The notes: generated by a model not told the origin, from the letters alone. Positions 679-63,913 are shown, counted from the first letter of the stretch. The stretch is DNA of 64,000 nucleotides from an uncultured delta proteobacterium (GCA_963828255.1 CAWHDZ010000026.1:1-64000); one strand, 5' to 3'. Numbers and translations are program-made.

Positions 679-3606
679 TTGCCCGGGAGCGAAGACAAGC
701 GCGACGGCGCAAAGGCACCGAGCGCCGGTGAACCCGGCCCGCTCTCCCGCCTCATCCGGGAGCTGGCCGACGCCCCCGGGGAGGAGGTCCTGGAGGCCTG
801 GAAGAGCGAGCTCCAGCCCGGCGATCGGGTGGGCCGCTTCGAGATCCGGCGCGAGGTGGGGCGGGGCGGCTTCGGGGCGGTCCACGAGGCCTTCGACACC
901 GAGCTGAACCGGGTCGTCGCGGTGAAGGCGCTCCGCCTGTCCCGCTCCCGGAAGGAGCTCTCCTCCGACTGGATGAAGAGGGAGGCCGAGGCCGTGGCGC
1001 GCCTCGACCACCCCTGTATCGTCACCCTGTTCGACGTCGGCACCTGCCCCTCCGGGCCCTACCTCGTGATGGAGCTCCTTCGCGGGAAGACCCTGGCGCA
1101 ACGCCTGGACGACGGGCCCATCCCCACCGGAGAAGCGCTGCGCATCTCCGAGGAGATGGCCCGCGGGCTTGCGCACGCCCACGAGCGGGGGGTGCTGCAC
1201 CGGGACCTCAAGCCGGCCAACGTCTTCCTCTGCGACGACGGCCGGGTGAAGCTGCTCGACTTCGGTCTCGCCCACCTGCTCGGCAAGCCGGGCGAGGCGA
1301 GCGGCGGGACGCCCGCGTACATGGCGCCGGAGCAGGCGCGGGGCGGAGAGATCGATGCGCGGGCCGACGTCTTCGCGGCGGCGGTGACGCTGCGGGAGAT
1401 GGTGACCGGGAGGCGCGAGCCGGGGGTCGGCGCGTCCATTCCACGGGCGCTCGCCCGGGTGCTCGATTGCGGTGCCTCCCCGAACCGGGAGGACCGGCCA
1501 CGGGACGGGACCGCCTGGCGGGACGAGATCCGGGAGTTCCAGCGATCCCGCGCGCGACCGCGAACGGTCCGGCGGGTCGCCGGGCTCGTGCTGGCCGGGC
1601 TGCTGCTCGGAGCCGCCGTGGCGGGCATGGTCCTGGAGCGCAGGTCGGCCGGCCGGATCCTCGGTCTCGCGTCGGCCCCCGGAGAGCGCATCCCCATCGC
1701 AGTCGCCGACGTGGTGAACGAGACCGGCGAGAAGGAGCTCGACGTCCTCTCCGGCCTCCTCGTCACCTCCCTCGAGCAGTCGCGCCGGCTCACGGTGATG
1801 ACGCAGGCCCGGGTGCTCGACCTCGCGAGCCGGGCCGGCCGCCGGGACGCGGTCCGGGTCGACGAGACCATCGGGCGAGAGGTCGGAAAGGCCCACGGCA
1901 TCCGGGCGCTGCTCCTCCCCGCCATCCGGCGGCTGGGGACGACCTACTCGCTGGAGATGCGGGTCATCGACCCCGAGCGGGACGAGCACCTCTTCACGCT
2001 GAGCGACCGGGCCACTTCAAAGGAGGCGCTCCTCGACCTCCTCGACCGGCTCTCGGAGCGGACCCGGGCGGGACTGGGGGAGGGAATGGACGAGGTGAGC
2101 CGGGCGAGCGTGCAACTCGGCGAGTCGGTCACCCGCAGCGTCGAGGCCTACCAGCACTACCTCGCCGGACTGGAGGGCTGGCACCGGGACGGAATGAGGG
2201 CGATCGGCCTGCGTGAGTTCCAGGAGGCGCTTCGACTCGATCCGGGCTTCGCGGCAGCACACGGCGAGCTCGCCGAGCTCTTGCAGCATGGCTACCGGCA
2301 GCCCGATCGGGCCGCTTCCCATTGGCGCGCCGCCAACGACCTCCTCCAGCGGATGCCGGAGAAGGAACGGCTCCTCCTCCGCCTCAAGCGGGCGCACCGC
2401 TCGCCAACGCTCGAACACTTCAGTCGCGAGGAGGCCCTCCGCTTGGGAGATGAGATCCTCGCTCGATTCCCTGACGACAAGTTCGCCGTCACCTCGGCGG
2501 CCGAGGCATTCGAGTCCTTCGAGTTGCAGGCGCGGTCGGAGAAGGCGCTCCGTCGGGCCCTGGAACTCGACCCCGGATACTTCTGGGCGGCCGACTCACT
2601 CGCCGACCAGCTGGCTGCCCTGCCGTCAGATGCCCTGAGTGTCGCCCGGACTGCCGTCGCCGTCCGGCGGAACCCTGCGAACCTCAGCATCCTTGCCGGC
2701 GCGCAATGGGCCGCGGGAGACGATGCGGGGGCCGCGTCCACGGCGCGGGAAATCCTGCGCTCCGAGGGTGGAAGGAATTCGCTGATCGCTGCTCGGGCCT
2801 GCAACACACTGTACGAGATGGGCGCGGGAGACGAGTGCATCCCGCTGTGGACGCACATGATCGAAGATGGCGAGAACGACATGGAGCGCAGTTACGCCTC
2901 GTTCGAGCTCATGAAGTCGCTTGCCCACCAGGGCCGGATCCGGGACGCGCTCCGGATCGCAACCACCGCCCCGGACCTGGCCGGCCCGGCTCCGCCCGAG
3001 TTGCTCGCAAACATTCATCAAGTCGGACGCTCCCGGCTGGAGTCTCCCCAGGCCATCGCGCCGGCACGGCGCATCTCCAATCCCCAGCTCCGACGGAACT
3101 TCCTATCCTGGCTGGGTGCGGGGGACGAGGCCGAGCAGATCACGACGTCCCTGGGGGGCAAGGGCTTCGAGGTGGTCGAGAAGGTGAACAGCGCCATCGA
3201 TCTGGTGCGCCGGGGCCAGCCGGCCGCGGCTGAGCCGATCGTTCGAGCGGTCAGGACGGAGATCAGTCGACGGTGGTACTCGAGCAGCCTGTTCGGCATC
3301 GCGGCGTTCCATGCAGAGATTCTGCTCGCGGTCGGTCGCGACGCCGACGCCGCAGGGATCTGGCCCTCGCCGCTTCCCTGCCGTTGCACGGACCAGATGG
3401 ACCACGCGGTGCAGTATCCACGTTTGGCGATCCACCGCGCCCATGCCATGGAGCGGCTCGGCCGTCGCGCCGACGCCCTGCGGGAGCTGGACGGTGTGAT
3501 CGCCTTCTGGAAGGAGGCCGACTCCGACCTCCCACTCCTCGTCGAGGCGAAGTCCATGCGCGCGCGGCTGGCGAGGAGCGCCGTCGTCGATGGAGTGAGG
3601 CCGTGA
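679..3606 (+). CDS. Ser/Thr protein kinase with TM helix and TolB-N-like/TPR C-terminal region
   Basis: GRGGFG, VAVK, HRDLKPAN, DFG, GTPAYMAPE; hydrophobic VAGLVLAGLLLGAAVAGMVL; TPR-like helices. TTG start at 679 follows GGAGG (668-672). Confidence 0.9.
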   Translation: MPGSEDKRDGAKAPSAGEPGPLSRLIRELADAPGEEVLEAWKSELQPGDRVGRFEIRREVGRGGFGAVHEAFDTELNRVVAVKALRLSRSRKELSSDWMKREAEAVARLDHPCIVTLFDVGTCPSGPYLVMELLRGKTLAQRLDDGPIPTGEALRISEEMARGLAHAHERGVLHRDLKPANVFLCDDGRVKLLDFGLAHLLGKPGEASGGTPAYMAPEQARGGEIDARADVFAAAVTLREMVTGRREPGVGASIPRALARVLDCGASPNREDRPRDGTAWRDEIREFQRSRARPRTVRRVAGLVLAGLLLGAAVAGMVLERRSAGRILGLASAPGERIPIAVADVVNETGEKELDVLSGLLVTSLEQSRRLTVMTQARVLDLASRAGRRDAVRVDETIGREVGKAHGIRALLLPAIRRLGTTYSLEMRVIDPERDEHLFTLSDRATSKEALLDLLDRLSERTRAGLGEGMDEVSRASVQLGESVTRSVEAYQHYLAGLEGWHRDGMRAIGLREFQEALRLDPGFAAAHGELAELLQHGYRQPDRAASHWRAANDLLQRMPEKERLLLRLKRAHRSPTLEHFSREEALRLGDEILARFPDDKFAVTSAAEAFESFELQARSEKALRRALELDPGYFWAADSLADQLAALPSDALSVARTAVAVRRNPANLSILAGAQWAAGDDAGAASTAREILRSEGGRNSLIAARACNTLYEMGAGDECIPLWTHMIEDGENDMERSYASFELMKSLAHQGRIRDALRIATTAPDLAGPAPPELLANIHQVGRSRLESPQAIAPARRISNPQLRRNFLSWLGAGDEAEQITTSLGGKGFEVVEKVNSAIDLVRRGQPAAAEPIVRAVRTEISRRWYSSSLFGIAAFHAEILLAVGRDADAAGIWPSPLPCRCTDQMDHAVQYPRLAIHRAHAMERLGRRADALRELDGVIAFWKEADSDLPLLVEAKSMRARLARSAVVDGVRP

Positions 3607-6368
3607 AGGAGCCCGCCGCCGGTAGCCCCGGCCCGCTCTCCCGGATCCTCGGGGAACTCGCGGCCGCTCCCGGAGACGGGCTTCTCGAGGCCTGGCAGGA
3701 GGAGCTGCGTCCGGGCGACCGTCTCGACCGCTTCGAGATCCGGCGCGAGGTGGGGCGGGGCGGCTTCGGCGCAGTCTTCGAGGCCTGGGACGGCGAGCTG
3801 GGGCGGGCGGTGGCCATCAAGACCTTGCGCCCTGGCCGGACGCGGAAGGAGCTCTCGGCGGGATGGATCCGCAGGGAGGCCGAGGCGGTGGCGCGGCTCG
3901 GCCACCCCGGGATCGTCACCATCCACGACGTCTGCAACTGCTCGGCCGGGCCGTATCTCGTGATGGAACTGCTCCGGGGGCGCACGCTGGCCCAGCGGCT
4001 CGAGGAGGGCACGCTCCCGGCGCTGGAGGCGGAGCGGATCGCCGCGGAGATGGGGATGGCGCTCGCCCACGCGCACGGACGCGGCGTGCTGCACCGCGAT
4101 CTCAAGCCGGCCAACGTCTTCCTCTGCGACGACGGCGGGGTGAAGCTCCTCGATTTCGGGCTCGCCCACCTCCTCGGGACGCCTCAGGACGGCGGAGGGG
4201 GAACCCCAGCATACATGGCGCCGGAACAGGCCCGGGGCGATGCGATCGACGAGCGGGCCGACGTCTTCGCGGCCGGAAGGGTGCTGGAAGAGATGCTCGG
4301 GGAGCACCCATCACGGCGGCTTTCGGAGGCGGTCGCGGCCGCCACCGCGCCGGATCGCGAGGCGCGCCCGAGGGACGGCAAGGCCTGGCTGGACCTGCTC
4401 CAGCACAACCGACGCGCCGCCGAACGTGGCGCCCGCACCCGGAAGCTCGCGTGGATGGCGGCCGGGCTCCTGGCCCTCGCTGCGGGGATCGCCGGTGTGG
4501 CGACCTGGCAGGAGCGCAGGGCCCACGACCTCGTCGATGCGGCAGGGCGGATCACCGTGGCGGTGGCCGACTTCCAGAACGCGACCCGCGACCCGGACCT
4601 GGACGGGCTCTCGGGCCTCCTCGTCACGTCCCTCGAGCAGTCCCGGAAGCTCCGGGTGCTCACGCGCGGGCGGCTCATCGAGCTCATCCGGCAGATGGGG
4701 CTCGATCGCGGCCAGCGGATCGACGAGGCGCTGGCCCGGGAGGTGGGAAAGAAGGCGGGCGTGCGCGTGCTCCTGCTCGCATCCGTGCAGAAGCTCGGGG
4801 AGACGTACGTGGCGGAATTGCGAGCCATCGACCCGGAGCGTGATGCCTACCTCTTCACCCTCCAGGAGAAGGCTATCGGGAAGGAGGGGCTGCTCCCCCT
4901 CATCGACCGGCTCTCCGACCGGGCCCGCGTGGAACTCCGGGAGGGGCAGGCCGACGTGAAGGCGAGCGAGGTGAACGTCGCCGAGGCGGTGACGCCCAGC
5001 CTGGAGGCCTACCGGCACTACTTCCGGGGGCTGGAGCGGAGCGCCCGCCTCGACGACGACGGCGCGCTGGCCGAGTTCAAGGCAGCGCTCGCCATGGAGC
5101 CCCGCTTCGCGCTCGCGGAGCTGGAGATCGCCCAGCTCGACACTCTTTACGGCAGGGACGGCGACCCGGCCTTCCAGCGGGCGTCCGCACACGCGGAGAC
5201 ACTGCCGGTGAAGGAGCGCGAGCTCGTCCGTGCGGAGATCGCTCTCCACGCGGGCAGGAGGGCCGACGCGGTCGCCATCCTCGAGCCCCTGGCCCTGCGC
5301 TTCCCCGACGATCGATTCGTCGCCCGTGCCGCCGGAGGCGCGGCGGGGTGCCCCGAGGGCATGGCCCACCGGCGGAGGGCGCTCGCGCTCGCGCCCGACT
5401 GGGACCGGGCCCGGCTCGACCTCCTGAACTGCCTCCTGTGGCAGGGGAAGTCGGAGGAGGCGATCGCCGAGGCAGAGGGCGCGGAGCAGGCCCGCCCGAC
5501 CAGCTCGAGCGCGACGGCCGTCGCCCTGGCGCGCTACGAGTCGGGCGACGTCGACGGGGCCATCGCCGCGGCCCGGCGCGCCGGCGAGCGCGGGCATACC
5601 AACTGGAGCCGGGGCATCCTGATCTCGGCGCTGGCCACGCGCGGCGCCTTCGACGAGGCGGCGACGGAAGCGAGAGGCCTCTCCGGGGAGATGAAGAACA
5701 TGCAGTGTGTCGTGCACGCCGAGATGGGGCAGCTCGGAGCCTGCCTGACCATCGGAGACGACATCGTCCGTGCGAACGGAACCTGGCCCGGAGGCCTCCG
5801 CAACCGTCGCGCTGCAATCGCCGTGGCCCGGGGCCGGGCACCCCCCGGGGACTCGCCGTCCGCAATCGCCCTGGACGGGTGGTGGGGCCCCTTCACGGTC
5901 ATGCTCATTCGGGACCCGGACGAACTCGCGGCCGCCGCCCAGGCCACCGGGAACGAGACGGCGATCGGCCAGATGTACAGGGCCCTGCTGGCCGGGGAGC
6001 GTGGGGACGTCGCGGGGGCCCTCGCGCAGCTTCCCGTCGAGGGAAGGGTCCTCGGGGACCTCCAGCTCTACTACCGGGGAATCTACGCCTCGGAACTCGG
6101 CCGCGACGCCGAAGCGATCGCCGCGTTCGCCCAGCTGGAGAAGAGGAACATCTCCTACTTCGCCAACGTCTACCGGGCCTTCCTCCTGGCCCGCGGCCGC
6201 TACCTCACCGCCCTTTCCCTCGAACGCATGGGCCGCCGCGACGAGGCCCGCGCGGTGCTCGCGAAGCAGCTCGACCGCTGGAAGGACGCGGACCCCGACC
6301 TCCCGCTCCTCGCCGAGATGAAAACCCTTTGCCGGAAAGTCGCCTGCCAGCCAGGAGCCTCCCCGTGA
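3603..6368 (+). CDS. Ser/Thr protein kinase with TM helix and TPR region (tandem paralog)
   Basis: Same kinase motifs; GTG start overlaps the previous TGA (GTGA); TM LAWMAAGLLALAAGIAGVATW. Confidence 0.9.
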   Translation: MKEPAAGSPGPLSRILGELAAAPGDGLLEAWQEELRPGDRLDRFEIRREVGRGGFGAVFEAWDGELGRAVAIKTLRPGRTRKELSAGWIRREAEAVARLGHPGIVTIHDVCNCSAGPYLVMELLRGRTLAQRLEEGTLPALEAERIAAEMGMALAHAHGRGVLHRDLKPANVFLCDDGGVKLLDFGLAHLLGTPQDGGGGTPAYMAPEQARGDAIDERADVFAAGRVLEEMLGEHPSRRLSEAVAAATAPDREARPRDGKAWLDLLQHNRRAAERGARTRKLAWMAAGLLALAAGIAGVATWQERRAHDLVDAAGRITVAVADFQNATRDPDLDGLSGLLVTSLEQSRKLRVLTRGRLIELIRQMGLDRGQRIDEALAREVGKKAGVRVLLLASVQKLGETYVAELRAIDPERDAYLFTLQEKAIGKEGLLPLIDRLSDRARVELREGQADVKASEVNVAEAVTPSLEAYRHYFRGLERSARLDDDGALAEFKAALAMEPRFALAELEIAQLDTLYGRDGDPAFQRASAHAETLPVKERELVRAEIALHAGRRADAVAILEPLALRFPDDRFVARAAGGAAGCPEGMAHRRRALALAPDWDRARLDLLNCLLWQGKSEEAIAEAEGAEQARPTSSSATAVALARYESGDVDGAIAAARRAGERGHTNWSRGILISALATRGAFDEAATEARGLSGEMKNMQCVVHAEMGQLGACLTIGDDIVRANGTWPGGLRNRRAAIAVARGRAPPGDSPSAIALDGWWGPFTVMLIRDPDELAAAAQATGNETAIGQMYRALLAGERGDVAGALAQLPVEGRVLGDLQLYYRGIYASELGRDAEAIAAFAQLEKRNISYFANVYRAFLLARGRYLTALSLERMGRRDEARAVLAKQLDRWKDADPDLPLLAEMKTLCRKVACQPGASP

Positions 6369-59878: not shown

Positions 59879-61249
59879 ATGGCGGCCATCTCGAAGACGA
59901 TCTTCCGCGAGTACGACATCCGCGGGCTGGTGGACCAGGACCTCACCGAGGACGCGGTGCTCCTCGTGGGGCGCGCGCTCGGCGCCGAGGTGCGCGAGCA
60001 GGGCGGCCGCCGGGTGGTCATGGGGCGCGACTGCCGGGAGAGCGGTCCACGCTTCGCGAGGGCGATGGCGGCGGGGCTGAACGCGGCCGGCGTGGACGTG
60101 ACCGATCTGGGGGTGGTGCCCACGCCGCTCACCTACTTCGCCGCGGCCACCCTTCCGGTGGACGGCCTGGTGATGATCACCGGCTCCCACAACCCGCCCG
60201 AGTACAACGGCCTCAAGGTCGGGGTGGGGAAGAACACGCTCCACGGCGACGGCATCCAGGCGCTCCTCCGGCGCATCACCGCGGACCGCTTCACGAGCGG
60301 GGAGGGCAAGGTCGAGGCCCACGACATCGTCACGCCCTACCTGGCCTACGTCCGCGGCAATCTGAAGCTCGGCCCCCGCAAGCTCAAGGTGGTGGTGGAC
60401 GCCGGGAACGGCACCGGCGGCGTCATCGCCGTGCCGCTCTTCCGCTCGCTGGGCGTCGAGGTGGTGCCGCTCTTCGAGGAGATGGACGGGCGCTTCCCGA
60501 ACCACCACCCGGACCCGACGGTGGAGAAGAACCTCGCGTTCCTCAAGGCCAAGGTGCTCGAGACCGGCGCCGACCTGGGGGTGGCCTACGACGGCGACGC
60601 CGACCGGGTGGGGGCCGTGGACGAGAAGGGAACGGTGCTGTGGGGCGACCAGCTCATGATCCTCTTCTCGCGGGCGGTGCTGGCCGAGAACCCCGGCGCG
60701 GCCATCGTCGGCGAGGTGAAGTGCTCGAAGACCCTCTACGACGACATCGCCGCCCGCGGCGGCCGGGGCATCATGTGGAAGGCCGGCCACAGCCTCATCA
60801 AGGCCAAGATGAAGGAGGAGGGGGCGCTGCTCGCCGGGGAGATGAGCGGGCACATCTTCTTCGCCCACCGCTGGTTCGGCTTCGACGACGGCATCTACTC
60901 GTCGGGCCGGCTGCTCGAGCTGGTCTCGCGCACCGACCGGCCGGTCTCGACGCTCCTCGCCGACGTGCCGAGGACCTTCTCGACGCCGGAGATCCGCTAC
61001 GACTGCCCGGAGGAGATCAAGTTCGAGCTGGTCCGCCTGGCGCAGGAGTGGTTCGCCTCCCGGCACGAGGCGGTGACCATCGACGGGGTCCGCGTGATCT
61101 TTTCCGACGGGTGGGGCCTGGTCCGCGCCTCCAACACCCAGCCGCTCCTCGTCCTCCGCTTCGAGGCCCTGACGGCCGGGAGGCTGGCCGAGATCCAGGC
61201 GCTGGTGACCTCGAAGGTGGATGAGCTGAAACGGCGTCTCGGCGCGTAG
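59879..61249 (+). CDS. Phosphomannomutase/phosphoglucomutase
   Basis: YDIRG, TGSHNP, DGDADR, GEMSGH, RASNT. Confidence 0.95.
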   Translation: MAAISKTIFREYDIRGLVDQDLTEDAVLLVGRALGAEVREQGGRRVVMGRDCRESGPRFARAMAAGLNAAGVDVTDLGVVPTPLTYFAAATLPVDGLVMITGSHNPPEYNGLKVGVGKNTLHGDGIQALLRRITADRFTSGEGKVEAHDIVTPYLAYVRGNLKLGPRKLKVVVDAGNGTGGVIAVPLFRSLGVEVVPLFEEMDGRFPNHHPDPTVEKNLAFLKAKVLETGADLGVAYDGDADRVGAVDEKGTVLWGDQLMILFSRAVLAENPGAAIVGEVKCSKTLYDDIAARGGRGIMWKAGHSLIKAKMKEEGALLAGEMSGHIFFAHRWFGFDDGIYSSGRLLELVSRTDRPVSTLLADVPRTFSTPEIRYDCPEEIKFELVRLAQEWFASRHEAVTIDGVRVIFSDGWGLVRASNTQPLLVLRFEALTAGRLAEIQALVTSKVDELKRRLGA

Positions 61250-61462: not shown

Positions 61463-61491
61463 TTGCAAGGTCGATCTGCGTTCGCTAATCT
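61463..61491 (+). promoter_or_regulatory. Putative sigma70 promoter for the Lys-rich micro-ORF
   Basis: TTGCAA-N17-TAATCT. Confidence 0.6.
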
Positions 61492-61547
61492 GCACTCGTC
61501 TTCGTAGTGCGTCGTTGGTAGTTGACCAACTGTCAGGGAGGTAACAC

Positions 61548-61622
61548 ATGGCTGCCAAGAAGAAGGCTGTGAAGAAGGCTCCGGCGAAGAAGAAGGCTGT
61601 GAAGAAGGCCAAGAAGAAGTAA
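61548..61622 (+). CDS. 24-aa Lys/Ala-rich histone-H1-like micropeptide MAAKKKAVKKAPAKKKAVKKAKKK
   Basis: GGGAGG SD 7 nt before the ATG, TAA stop, upstream promoter; below the ORF-track size cut-off. Confidence 0.75.
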   Translation: MAAKKKAVKKAPAKKKAVKKAKKK

Positions 61623-61634
61623 CGATGCCTTCGT

Positions 61635-61683
61635 GGCGCGAGGAGACTCGCGCCGGGTCTTGCGGCCGCCTCCGGGCGGCCGC
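61635..61683 (+). terminator. Tandem GC-rich hairpins after the micro-ORF (terminator or processing/stability element)
   Basis: GGCGCGAG-GAGA-CTCGCGCC and GCGGCCGCC-TCCG-GGCGGCCGC; weak U-tract. Confidence 0.45.
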
Positions 61684-61700
61684 AGCCGTTTCGGGCTCCC

Positions 61701-63164
61701 GTGTCCCTGCGCTCCGGCGAGATCGCGCTCCTCATCGAGGAGCTCCGCCCCCTGGTGGGGTCGCGCGTCGACGCGGTGCGGGTTCACTCCGAGCGGCTCG
61801 TCACCCTGGAACTGCGCGGTCCGGCCGGCGACGCCACCCTGCTCCTCTCCGCCGAGCCGGACCTCACCCGCCTCCACGCCGCCACCTGGCGCCCCCCGTC
61901 CCATCCCGAGCCGCTGGCCTTCCAGGTCGCGCTGCGCCGCGAGATCAGTGGCGCCCGGCTCGCGTCCATCGAGGCTCCCGGCGGGGATCGGCTGGTGGCA
62001 TTGCGTTTCGAGCGCCCGGCCGGCCCCGTGTCGCTCCTGGCCGAGCTGACCGGGCGGAACGGAAACCTCCTCCTCGTGGACGGAGCCGGCGTCGTCCGGG
62101 CCATGGCAGGCCGGAACCTCTCCCAGCGCCGGGCGCTCCTGCCGGGCGCCCCGTACCTCCCGCCGGAGGCCCGGGAGGGGGACGGCGAGGCGCCCCGCTT
62201 CGCGCCGGTGGAGGGCGCGCCGTTTCCCGTCTCCGCCGCGGTCGAGGCCTTCTACCGGAGGCTCGAGGAGGAGCGCGCCCTCTCGGCCGCACGCCGCCGC
62301 CTGCGCGAGCCGCTGCGGGCGGGGGTGGCCCGGTCGCGCCGGGCGCTCGAGAAGCTCGCCGACGAGGCGGCGCGCGTACCCGCGGCCGAGGCCGACCGGC
62401 GCGCCGCCGACCTCCTCAAGCAGAACCTCCGCGCGGTCCCGCGCGGAGCCCGGGAGGTCGCCGTCACCGAGTGGACCGAGGACGGCCCCATCCACGTGAC
62501 GCTGGCCATCGACCCGGCGCTCACGCCGCGCGCCAACATGGAGCGCTTCTACCGGCGCTACCGGCGCATCGCCGAGAGCGCCGCCCGGGTCGAGGCCCGC
62601 GTCGGCGAGGTGAGGGCGAGGCTCGCGGCCACCGAGGCGCTGCTCGCCGAGCTCGAATCCGCCCCGCCCGAGGCGCTGCCGCGGCTCGAGCGGGAGGCAC
62701 GCAAGGTCGGCGCCGCACCGCGCGTGCAGCGCCCGCCCCGCCGGCGCGACGAGAAGCCGGCCGCTCCCTACCGGACCTTCCGGTCGGCAGCCGGCCTCCT
62801 CGTCCTGGTGGGGCGCGGCGCCGCCGAGAACGATCAGCTGACCGTGCGGGTGGCCAAGGGAAACGACGTCTGGCTTCACGCCCGCGGCCGCACCGGCGCC
62901 CACGTCGTCCTGCGGCTCCCCAAGGGGCGAGCCCCCGATCAGGAGAGCCTGCTCGACGCGGCCCACCTGGCCGCCCACTTCAGCGACGCCCGGGGGGAGG
63001 CCGCTCCCGAGGTGGTCTACACGCGCGTGAAGCACGTCCGGAAGGTGAAGGGGGCCGCCCCCGGGGCCGTGACCTACAGCCAGGAGAAGGGGATGGCGCT
63101 GCGGGTGGAGCCGTCGCGCCTCACGCGGCTCCTCCTGGGGGAGTCCGACGGGGAGCCTTCGTGA
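61701..63164 (+). CDS. rqcH: NFACT-family ribosome quality control protein (RqcH/FbpA-like)
   Basis: NFACT-N (DRLV, ELTGRNGNLLLVD), coiled coil, NFACT-R (VGRGAAENDQLT, DVWLHAR..GAHVV). Confidence 0.85.
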   Translation: MSLRSGEIALLIEELRPLVGSRVDAVRVHSERLVTLELRGPAGDATLLLSAEPDLTRLHAATWRPPSHPEPLAFQVALRREISGARLASIEAPGGDRLVALRFERPAGPVSLLAELTGRNGNLLLVDGAGVVRAMAGRNLSQRRALLPGAPYLPPEAREGDGEAPRFAPVEGAPFPVSAAVEAFYRRLEEERALSAARRRLREPLRAGVARSRRALEKLADEAARVPAAEADRRAADLLKQNLRAVPRGAREVAVTEWTEDGPIHVTLAIDPALTPRANMERFYRRYRRIAESAARVEARVGEVRARLAATEALLAELESAPPEALPRLEREARKVGAAPRVQRPPRRRDEKPAAPYRTFRSAAGLLVLVGRGAAENDQLTVRVAKGNDVWLHARGRTGAHVVLRLPKGRAPDQESLLDAAHLAAHFSDARGEAAPEVVYTRVKHVRKVKGAAPGAVTYSQEKGMALRVEPSRLTRLLLGESDGEPS

Positions 63165-63913
63165 GCGCGGCCAGGGGTCAGCTCGATCTCTCCTTCGACG
63201 CCCGCGAGGCGGGGAGGACGGACCGCGTCGCCGCCGCCGAGCGGCTGGCCGACGAGGTGGCCGCCCGCATCGGCGAGCCTGTCCGGCTCGTGGTGCACGA
63301 CAACCGGCACACCATGGTCTCCTTCCGCCGCGAGCGGACGGCCATCCAGCTCCGCGTCCACCACCTCTTCCTGGGCTGCCCTCCCGAGGTGACCGAGGCG
63401 CTGGCCGGGTTCGTCCGGCCGGAGCGGCGCGCCAGCCGCCGGGAAGCCTCGCGCGTCATCGACGGGTGGGTGCGGATCCACCGGGAGCGGATCTCCCCGC
63501 CGCGCACCGGGCGGCTCCATGCGCGCGGGCGGGTCCACGATCTGCAGGCCATCCTCGATCGCCTCAACGCCGATCACTTCGGCGGGTCGGTCGAGGCCAG
63601 GATCGGCTGGGGGCGGAGCGGGGCCCTGCCCGGGCGCACCTCCATCCGCACCGGGGTGTACCTGCACGCCGCCCGCGCCATCCGCATCCACCCCGCGCTC
63701 GACCGGGAGGAGGTGCCGGTCTTCTACGTGGAGTTCGTGGTCTTCCACGAGATGCTTCACCAGGTGGTCCCGCCGGCCGAGCGGGGGGGGCGCCGGAGCA
63801 TCCACGGCCGGGAGTTCCGGCGGCGGGAGCGGTCCTTTCCCGGGCAGGCCCGTGCGGCCGCCTGGGAGAAGGAGAACGTGCACCTCCTGCTGGCAAAACC
63901 GGGACGACGGTAG
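63161..63913 (+). CDS. SprT/YgjP-like zinc metallo-domain protein
   Basis: IRIHPALD, FVVFHEMLH (HExxH), IHG..F; GTGA overlap with rqcH. Confidence 0.75.
   Translation: MSAARGQLDLSFDAREAGRTDRVAAAERLADEVAARIGEPVRLVVHDNRHTMVSFRRERTAIQLRVHHLFLGCPPEVTEALAGFVRPERRASRREASRVIDGWVRIHRERISPPRTGRLHARGRVHDLQAILDRLNADHFGGSVEARIGWGRSGALPGRTSIRTGVYLHAARAIRIHPALDREEVPVFYVEFVVFHEMLHQVVPPAERGGRRSIHGREFRRRERSFPGQARAAAWEKENVHLLLAKPGRR

Follow-up and report, generated by a model that had tools for sequence, protein, structure and literature searches.

A conserved lysine-rich mini-gene ahead of rqcH in Myxococcota and its probable H1-tail-like product

The mini-gene and its signals

The window analysed in this study is a stretch of 64,000 nt from an uncultured delta proteobacterium (GCA_963828255.1 CAWHDZ010000026.1:1-64000). 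A short open reading frame (ORF) of 24 codons (61548..61622, +) lies in it just ahead of an rqcH-type NFACT gene (61701..63164, +), which starts with GTG at 61701 and codes for 487 aa matching Pfam NFACT_N and NFACT-R (PF05833, PF05670), in agreement with an initial annotation made from the sequence. The micro-ORF is rich in Lys and Ala, and its 24-aa translation, MAAKKKAVKKAPAKKKAVKKAKKK, carries a net charge of +13 and is likely a histone-H1-tail-like polycation. The 13 Lys residues, all coded by AAG, and the two copies of KKKAVKKA reported in that annotation can be read directly. The exclusive use of AAG was rejected as a signal, since AAG is the norm of the genome (2410 crudely picked genes use it for 98.1% of their Lys codons), and 13 of 13 would occur with a probability of 0.78. 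GCT makes up 4 of the 7 Ala codons versus 2.8% in the genome, and the stop codon is TAA, which accounts for 2.4% of genome stops. Such usage might mark high expression, although weakly, given that the HU and CSP control genes have GCT at 4 of 52 Ala codons and a TAA stop in 1 of 6 cases. Within the 4.3-Mb genome (71% GC; assembly 6.6% contaminated), no other ATG-started ORF of 12-150 aa reaches at least 50% Lys.

A predicted housekeeping-sigma promoter precedes the ORF at 61463..61491 (+), with the -35 box TTGCAA (61463-61468), a 17-nt spacer, and the -10 box TAATCT (61486-61491), and transcription is predicted to start near 61498. The sigma70-like layout described in the initial annotation is present and recurs in the leaders of relatives as TTGnnn-17/18-TAnnnT, but TTGCAA-17-TAATCT has a consensus score of 7/12, and a consensus promoter/terminator scan called nothing at the micro-ORF locus. 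In 12 same-genus loci the promoter stretch is 85-100% identical at the nucleotide level, and just upstream of it the figure is 51-69% in 11 of the 12, with 86% in the closest. Across these loci, identity over promoter, leader, ORF, and 3' region ranges within 72-100%.

The 5' leader of about 50 nt (61498..61547, +) is 88-100% identical within the genus. It contains the Shine-Dalgarno (SD) sequence AGGGAGGT (61535-61542), in which GGAGG at 61537-61541 stands 6 nt before the ATG and bears out the strong SD noted earlier; an SD was also seen in 43 orthologous ORFs, but these had been chosen with an SD filter. The palindrome GTTGGT..ACCAAC (61514-61530) had been taken for a leader hairpin (GTTGGT-AGTTG-ACCAAC). 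It exists as a sequence, but the leader folds no better than shuffles (z -1.22; 23 of 200 shuffles equally good), and the predicted pairing probability is 0.00 in the window and at most 0.26 in 12 relatives. Leaders from loci L016-L019, L022, L053, L150, and L154, which belong to other genera of the family, contain a clear stem, GTCCATTC..GAATGGAC, that encloses a variable loop and stands directly ahead of the SD. This stem differs from the leader in the window's genus and is possibly a 5' stabiliser.

Three consecutive hairpins had been described between the ORF and rqcH. Hairpin 1 (61635..61654, +; z -5.06) and hairpin 2 (z -5.9) are better than all of 200 shuffles, but hairpin 3 (61684..61697, +; -5.9 kcal/mol) does not rise above them (z -0.74; 43 of 200 as good). 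The latter overlaps the terminator tail, has a 3' arm that varies among relatives, and is probably no real element. Hairpin 1 is kept in the genus and in some relatives and is missing from several family loci. Hairpin 2 with its short T tail (61660..61693, +; core 61662-61683) is a predicted intrinsic terminator and 3' stabiliser; its stem core was found in 31 same-family loci, and it alone of the three is kept family-wide. Between ORF and rqcH, 56 of 63 loci have a hairpin of -15 kcal/mol or lower followed by a TTT tail, and the 7 loci without it include all 4 loci of family f8. The HU gene and one CSP gene of the window's genome end in the same hairpin-plus-GCATTTCC style, and because they share the short T tail, the missing terminator call of the consensus scan was not taken as absence. 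Three Rfam hits at the locus were weak, all far under gathering scores. Hairpin 2 was also considered as a dispersed repeat, which was rejected since the genome holds one copy. Its stem base (CGGCC..GGCCG or close) recurs across classes, with GGGCAGC..GCTGCCC in the AT-rich family f16, a constancy of sequence that exceeds what a terminator needs.

The initial annotation is right that rqcH has no obvious SD in the window, but in 21 of 31 same-family loci the T tail is followed by a G-rich, SD-like word, as would suit an rqcH supplied by leak. No TAnnnT box occurs between ORF and rqcH in 27 of the 31 loci, and therefore rqcH likely depends on read-through. In several families with long ORFs, a -10-like box was seen by eye just before the rqcH start.

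Conservation, and transcription in Myxococcus xanthus

The initial annotation had proposed looking for the peptide and its synteny upstream of rqcH in Myxococcota. A Lys-rich ORF ending no more than 300 nt from rqcH was found in 62 of 84 Myxococcota loci and in 10 of 15 families, some of them outside the class, and the promoter motif, SD, and GC hairpin are conserved with it. The 84 loci are those in which the rqcH N-terminus could be placed, so four family loci without it (L026, L027, L029, L030) and two f18 loci were left out; loci outside the order are those with listed coordinates rather than a random draw, and kin among them are not independent. By family, the ORF was present in 33/33 loci of the window's own family, 4/5 of f3, 1/4 of f4, 1/1 of f2, 1/1 of f9, 3/5 of f6, 4/4 of f8, 3/3 of f16, 10/12 of f14 (a count that includes L175, an atypical 318-aa protein), and 2/2 of f20. 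It was missing upstream of rqcH in f12 (0/10) and in f23, f13, and f24 (0/1 each), and in family f10 it lies 577 nt upstream. The order of the window was taken to be Myxococcales, as the RqcH of one same-order genome shares 97% identity with the Citreicoccus inhibens protein and 76-82% with those of Myxococcus and Corallococcus. Given 71% GC and 4.3 Mb, the window's family is presumably Anaeromyxobacter-like. Among named Myxococcaceae, a set that overlaps f6 and has two loci without upstream DNA, a Lys/Ala-rich ORF precedes rqcH in 31 of 32 loci.

The gap from the ORF stop to rqcH is 52-236 nt across loci. The upstream neighbour varies: it is a phosphomannomutase/phosphoglucomutase gene in the window (59879..61249, +; Pfam PGM_PMM I-IV) and a sugar-kinase-like or divergent ExbB-like gene elsewhere (by eye). 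Downstream, an SprT-like gene (63161..63913, +; PF10263, E 4.5e-5, under cut-off) overlaps the rqcH stop, and a similar gene follows rqcH in M. xanthus.

The mini-gene and rqcH also occur apart. With a protein query and two Pfam models, rqcH was not found, beyond weak sub-cut-off hits, in four f5 genomes that are 69-97% complete. Three of these genomes (G040, G052, G057) hold a 26-27-aa Lys-rich ORF in another neighbourhood with the same promoter layout and an SD, and its orthology rests on sequence type and promoter layout. The mini-gene was not beside the SprT-like gene in three loci of rqcH-less genomes and was located elsewhere by pattern. Among genomes whose rqcH has no upstream ORF, a narrow pattern gave no match in G060, G056, G039, G046, and G058, and an equally narrow search of five f12 genomes gave one 44-aa Lys-rich ORF (L202, G079) among the 20 loci inspected out of 24 matches. 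This Lys/Val-rich ORF (G079:C18:23631) is divergent from an RNase E/G-like gene (by eye) and belongs to the family without an ORF before rqcH. The 24-codon frame of the window is a conserved free-standing gene.

RNA-seq had likewise been proposed for transcription and read-through. Three raw-read runs from one study were mapped to the M. xanthus locus L117, with reads mostly at least 99% alike and with strands assigned on the assumption of the usual stranded protocol. Sense depth climbs from 32-54 to more than 1000 at L117 2606-2656, forms a plateau of 2411-4109 over the ORF (L117:2664-2903), and is 27-61 over rqcH, where antisense depth is 24-46. The ORF is 40-, 60-, and 150-fold deeper than rqcH in the three runs, with rqcH near background. 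Read-through into rqcH has an upper bound of 0.7-2.5%, or 0.1-0.6% after antisense subtraction. The 5' ends pile at 2606/2608, 24-26 nt beyond the -10 box of the counterpart promoter TTGACA-17-TACCAT, and the 3' ends pile at 2942/2943, 2-3 nt short of the hairpin at 2945-2975. As is usual for cDNA libraries, both piles fall inside the predicted ends, so they give limits for the transcript and no exact map of its ends. The M. xanthus counterpart is strongly transcribed as a separate short RNA.

Six C-to-T changes cluster at L117:2815-2822 inside the M. xanthus mini-gene. The sense reads carry them at 1-10% (17-57 start sites), whereas none of the 25-63 antisense reads of each run does. A library artefact, mixed-in converted molecules or RNA deamination might account for this cluster, and loose ends also lie near 2757.

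The peptide family and its probable function

The 62 distinct peptides span 18-202 aa, with 18-42 aa in the window's family. The N-terminus MAAKK is found in 45 of the 62, and there are 27 different C-terminal tetrapeptides. Lys and Ala make up 37% and 31% of residues in 43 ORFs, and across the 62 peptides D+E amount to 1% and F/W/Y/L/I to 0.2%. The K/R autocorrelation at lag 5 is 0.42 (0.37 in the window peptide) versus -0.02 +/- 0.02 in 200 shuffles. The longest Lys run is at most 3 in 41 of the 43 ORFs, which use AAG for 713 Lys codons and AAA for 5. GC-rich and AT-rich genomes alike retain an open frame with an SD and an ATG whose length changes stay in frame, and AAA codons appear there too. 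Three same-length ORFs of the genus differ by 7 synonymous and 3 non-synonymous changes, the latter being one shared change.

Two of eight orthologs, each of about 200 aa, pass the Pfam HC2 cut-off of 40 with 55.6 and 46.4 bits, and five more match below it. The ESM Atlas holds the 79-aa sequence of M. xanthus and gives an HC2 cluster at 0.88, which is a lead only. Its top cluster (0.95, Myxococcota) has no Pfam family and bears the automatic name 'Excinuclease ABC subunit A family protein', which was taken as a misnomer. In a collection of 15 billion proteins, 0 of 18 peptides were found and the M. xanthus RqcH from the same contig was found; any filtering of short or low-complexity sequences could contribute to this result. 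A literature search whose scope excluded subscription papers and supplements found no description of the mini-gene.

We consider it probable, at roughly two chances in three, that the mini-gene product is an abundant disordered H1-tail-like polycation that binds DNA or other polyanions by charge. The initial annotation had offered an unannotated H1/protamine-like micropeptide as one of two possibilities, and this idea is favoured by the conservation, composition, pentamer period, repeat-driven length, two HC2 passes, and stand-alone RNA. The promoter at 61463-61491 would make a short RNA from about 61498, and the strong SD would drive heavy translation of the mini-gene. The GC hairpin at 61662-61683 would stop most polymerases and protect the 3' end of the RNA. 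Starting 18 nt past the hairpin with no TAnnnT box between, rqcH would be fed by a small leak, and its supply would be stepped down to a constant level instead of being switched. In the peptide, Ala/Val/Pro separate Lys pairs and triplets at a period of five residues, and its action would resemble that of Hc2, BpH1 or the AlgP tail. For the window organism we infer promoter use, termination, translation, disorder, and DNA binding. In rpsU-dnaG, an internal terminator provides a step-down from an abundant small gene to a low-level gene. The mini-gene locus is similar in its strong promoter, small gene, terminator, and low-level gene; it is different in that the first gene would code for an unannotated polycation, and read-through was measured in M. 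xanthus alone, as an upper bound.

Chlamydia Hc2 (HctB, PF07382), Bordetella BpH1, and the Hc2-like proteins of Burkholderia (NF038052, NF038053) are free-standing proteins built of Lys/Ala/Thr/Pro/Val pentamers with two basic residues each, and their size is set by repeat number (PMC2848022). The mini-gene product is similar to them in having two basic residues per pentamer, almost no acidic residues, a size that varies by repeats, and two orthologs of about 200 aa above the Pfam cut-off. Unlike the Hc2 members (149-237 aa), it has 24 aa in the window and 18-42 in the family, and the window peptide matches no model; shared ancestry cannot be shown for sequence of such low complexity. The tie to rqcH is a feature of the mini-gene and, in the literature consulted, is not described for Hc2-like proteins. 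The class is not new, as Hc2-like proteins are known, and judging by its sequence the mini-gene would work like the Hc2/BpH1 types, with the window 24-mer as a putative minimal H1-like form below the family score. The peptide also resembles the KPAA tails of Pseudomonas AlgP and PhaF and the H1-/HMGA-like tail of CarD, which are disordered basic Lys/Ala/Pro repeats (PMC9239181; PMC8156234), but those tails sit on folded domains, and the mini-gene product consists of nothing but the tail. DNA binding in vitro is known for KPAA peptides, and AlgP associates with the nucleoid and polyphosphate granules (PMC9239181). In M. xanthus, a basic disordered H1 tail can replace the DNA-binding domain of CarD (PMC8156234). 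By analogy with KPAA peptides, AlgP, and the H1-type CarD tail, DNA binding by the mini-gene product is likely.

Several points weigh against an H1-like polycation. Its support lies at the sequence and RNA levels, and the RNA data come from a single study of a relative in another family. Hc2 has 165-237 aa, many more than the 24-mer, which matches no Pfam or NCBIfam model; the 79-aa form of M. xanthus has no HC2 or other family match, and 0 of 8 orthologs exceed an NCBIfam cut-off. The HC2 matches that were obtained follow from composition and show no ancestry. RNA, polyphosphate or ribosomes could equally be what the 24-mer binds. Across classes the mini-gene stays linked to rqcH while its upstream neighbour differs, a closer tie than a lone nucleoid gene would need, and iterated AAG lysines slow E. 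coli ribosomes in vitro (PMC4363877).

If the H1-like reading is true, M. xanthus and many members of the phylum have a strongly transcribed H1-like gene that is largely absent from protein collections; proteomics with trypsin would likely destroy such a Lys-rich peptide. Nucleoid studies would gain a direct and easy target in a host amenable to genetics, and the naturally occurring range of 18-202 aa would raise the question of the minimum length of an H1-like tail. The locus also points to weak read-through as a likely route of rqcH supply and to a form of RqcH without the HhH region.

RqcH and alternative readings

A search of the order located rqcH in 53 of 61 genomes, and across the phylum the gene is over the Pfam cut-off in 119 of 151 genomes. 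The window product matches the B. subtilis RqcH structures (PDB 7as8, 7aqc) at E 6e-49, and NFACT-N with its DR and E-x-x-G-R motifs, the coiled-coil/M region, and NFACT-R all align. NFACT_N matches in two pieces, 7-165 and 281-449, and about 19 residues stand in place of the unmatched model positions 166-280. Between the aligned blocks there are about 59 residues versus about 142 in B. subtilis RqcH, so the window protein is about 83 aa shorter there. The HhH region, which lies between NFACT-N and the coiled coil in the RqcH domain order (PMC8012679), appears to be deleted in the window RqcH and in Myxococcota RqcH generally. A further possible difference from B. subtilis concerns RqcP: with PF01479 as the single model, no stand-alone S4 protein of the RqcP type was found among 7 matches in the window's genome or in 30 of 34 matches of five relatives (G020, G149, G128, G088, G100). 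By eye, these matches look like uS4, pseudouridine synthases, TlyA-like proteins, and TyrRS. The uS4-like genes (C23/C40) and bS21-like genes (C17/C18) are each present in two copies, which agrees with an assembly contaminated at 6.6%. A survey of rescue factors covers 72 Myxococcota genomes, and its available passages are silent on the upstream ORF (PMC11633108).

These features raise the alternative, which we regard as unlikely, that the abundant polycation would bind ribosomes or tRNA and act in RqcH's own process, providing for example basic contacts for an HhH-less RqcH without an evident RqcP. It would fit the linkage in 10 of 15 families, the shortened HhH site with its split NFACT_N match, and the S4 result, and in B. 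subtilis NFACT-N and HhH touch peptidyl-tRNA and RqcP is required for tailing (PMC8012679). However, a product of 18-202 aa with no fixed motif past its N-terminal MAAKK is a poor fit to a binding pocket, and its RNA stands at 40-150:1 over that of rqcH. The mini-gene persists where rqcH was not found, and rqcH has no upstream ORF in 22 of 84 loci, including all ten of f12. No ribosomal-protein family (such as the bS22/AURKAIP1, bTHX, and eL41 types) was matched at E 0.1 in Pfam or NCBIfam, and the length varies tenfold, unlike the fixed length expected of small basic ribosomal proteins. It is doubtful, too, that both roles combine, so that a phylum-wide abundant polycation, down to 18 residues, would be a major chromatin protein and part of a remodelled ribosome-rescue module, kept before rqcH as tRNA/rRNA contacts for an HhH-less, RqcP-less RqcH or because the terminator leak sets the RqcH level.

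The second possibility in the initial annotation was a stalling-sensitive leader that couples rqcH to stress: slow translation of the Lys/Ala codons would alter read-through of the hairpin and raise rqcH under translation stress. Attenuators and arrest-peptide leaders of the trpL, hisL, SecM, and MifM types consist of a short ORF with a hairpin and T tail upstream of a gene. The locus shares the short ORF and terminator directly before a gene, and its promoter-ORF-terminator-rqcH order is that of an attenuator; the lack of TAnnnT in 27 of 31 same-family loci, by which rqcH likely needs read-through, is also in keeping with such a leader. Slow translation of the mini-gene is possible because repeated Lys codons, AAG as well as AAA, reduce the speed of E. 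coli ribosomes in vitro (PMC4363877), but the means of relaying it is missing. In all 31 same-family loci examined, a fold without the hairpin is 21-27.5 kcal/mol less favourable, and neither an antiterminator nor a switch that follows ribosome position is predicted. Hairpin probability is at least 0.95 in 30 of 31 loci with a ribosome mid-ORF and at least 0.75 in 30 of 31 with a ribosome at the stop; it is 0.03-0.67 in four loci without a ribosome (exact register), and L021 is low in all three states. Unlike known leaders, the mini-gene has no fixed arrest sequence or spacing, as the gap of 52-236 nt, the ORF of 18-202 aa, and the 27 C-terminal tetrapeptides indicate. Lys runs of at most 3 in 41 of 43 ORFs and 713 AAG versus 5 AAA codons also speak against it, whereas sliding needs runs of A (PMC4363877). 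The mini-gene is not confined to rqcH, persisting in G040, G052, and G057, where rqcH was not found, and each of the two genes occurs without the other. We regard a stalling leader as very unlikely.

The idea that the functional product is a short structured regulatory RNA with an incidental reading frame seems less probable still: the leader and 3' region are conserved as much as or more than the ORF within the genus, the RNA is abundant, and the hairpin stem is nearly invariant in the family, but the open frame keeps its SD, ATG, and in-frame length changes over 18-202 codons, synonymous changes outnumber non-synonymous ones by 7 to 3 in the three same-length genus ORFs, no Rfam match comes near a gathering score, and the leaders share no fold.

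Four further small basic ORFs of 36-111 aa with SD-like leaders occur in the window's genome (G000; C31:85144, C19:64782, C7:204158, and C40:141149, all +) and are possibly unannotated too. Other Myxococcales proteins start with a MAAKK-type basic tail fused to more sequence (L093, G048:C35:447030; L095, G053:C134:300521; L090, G051:C213:50579), and in one of these fusions the added part resembles a SWIB/MDM2-type domain.

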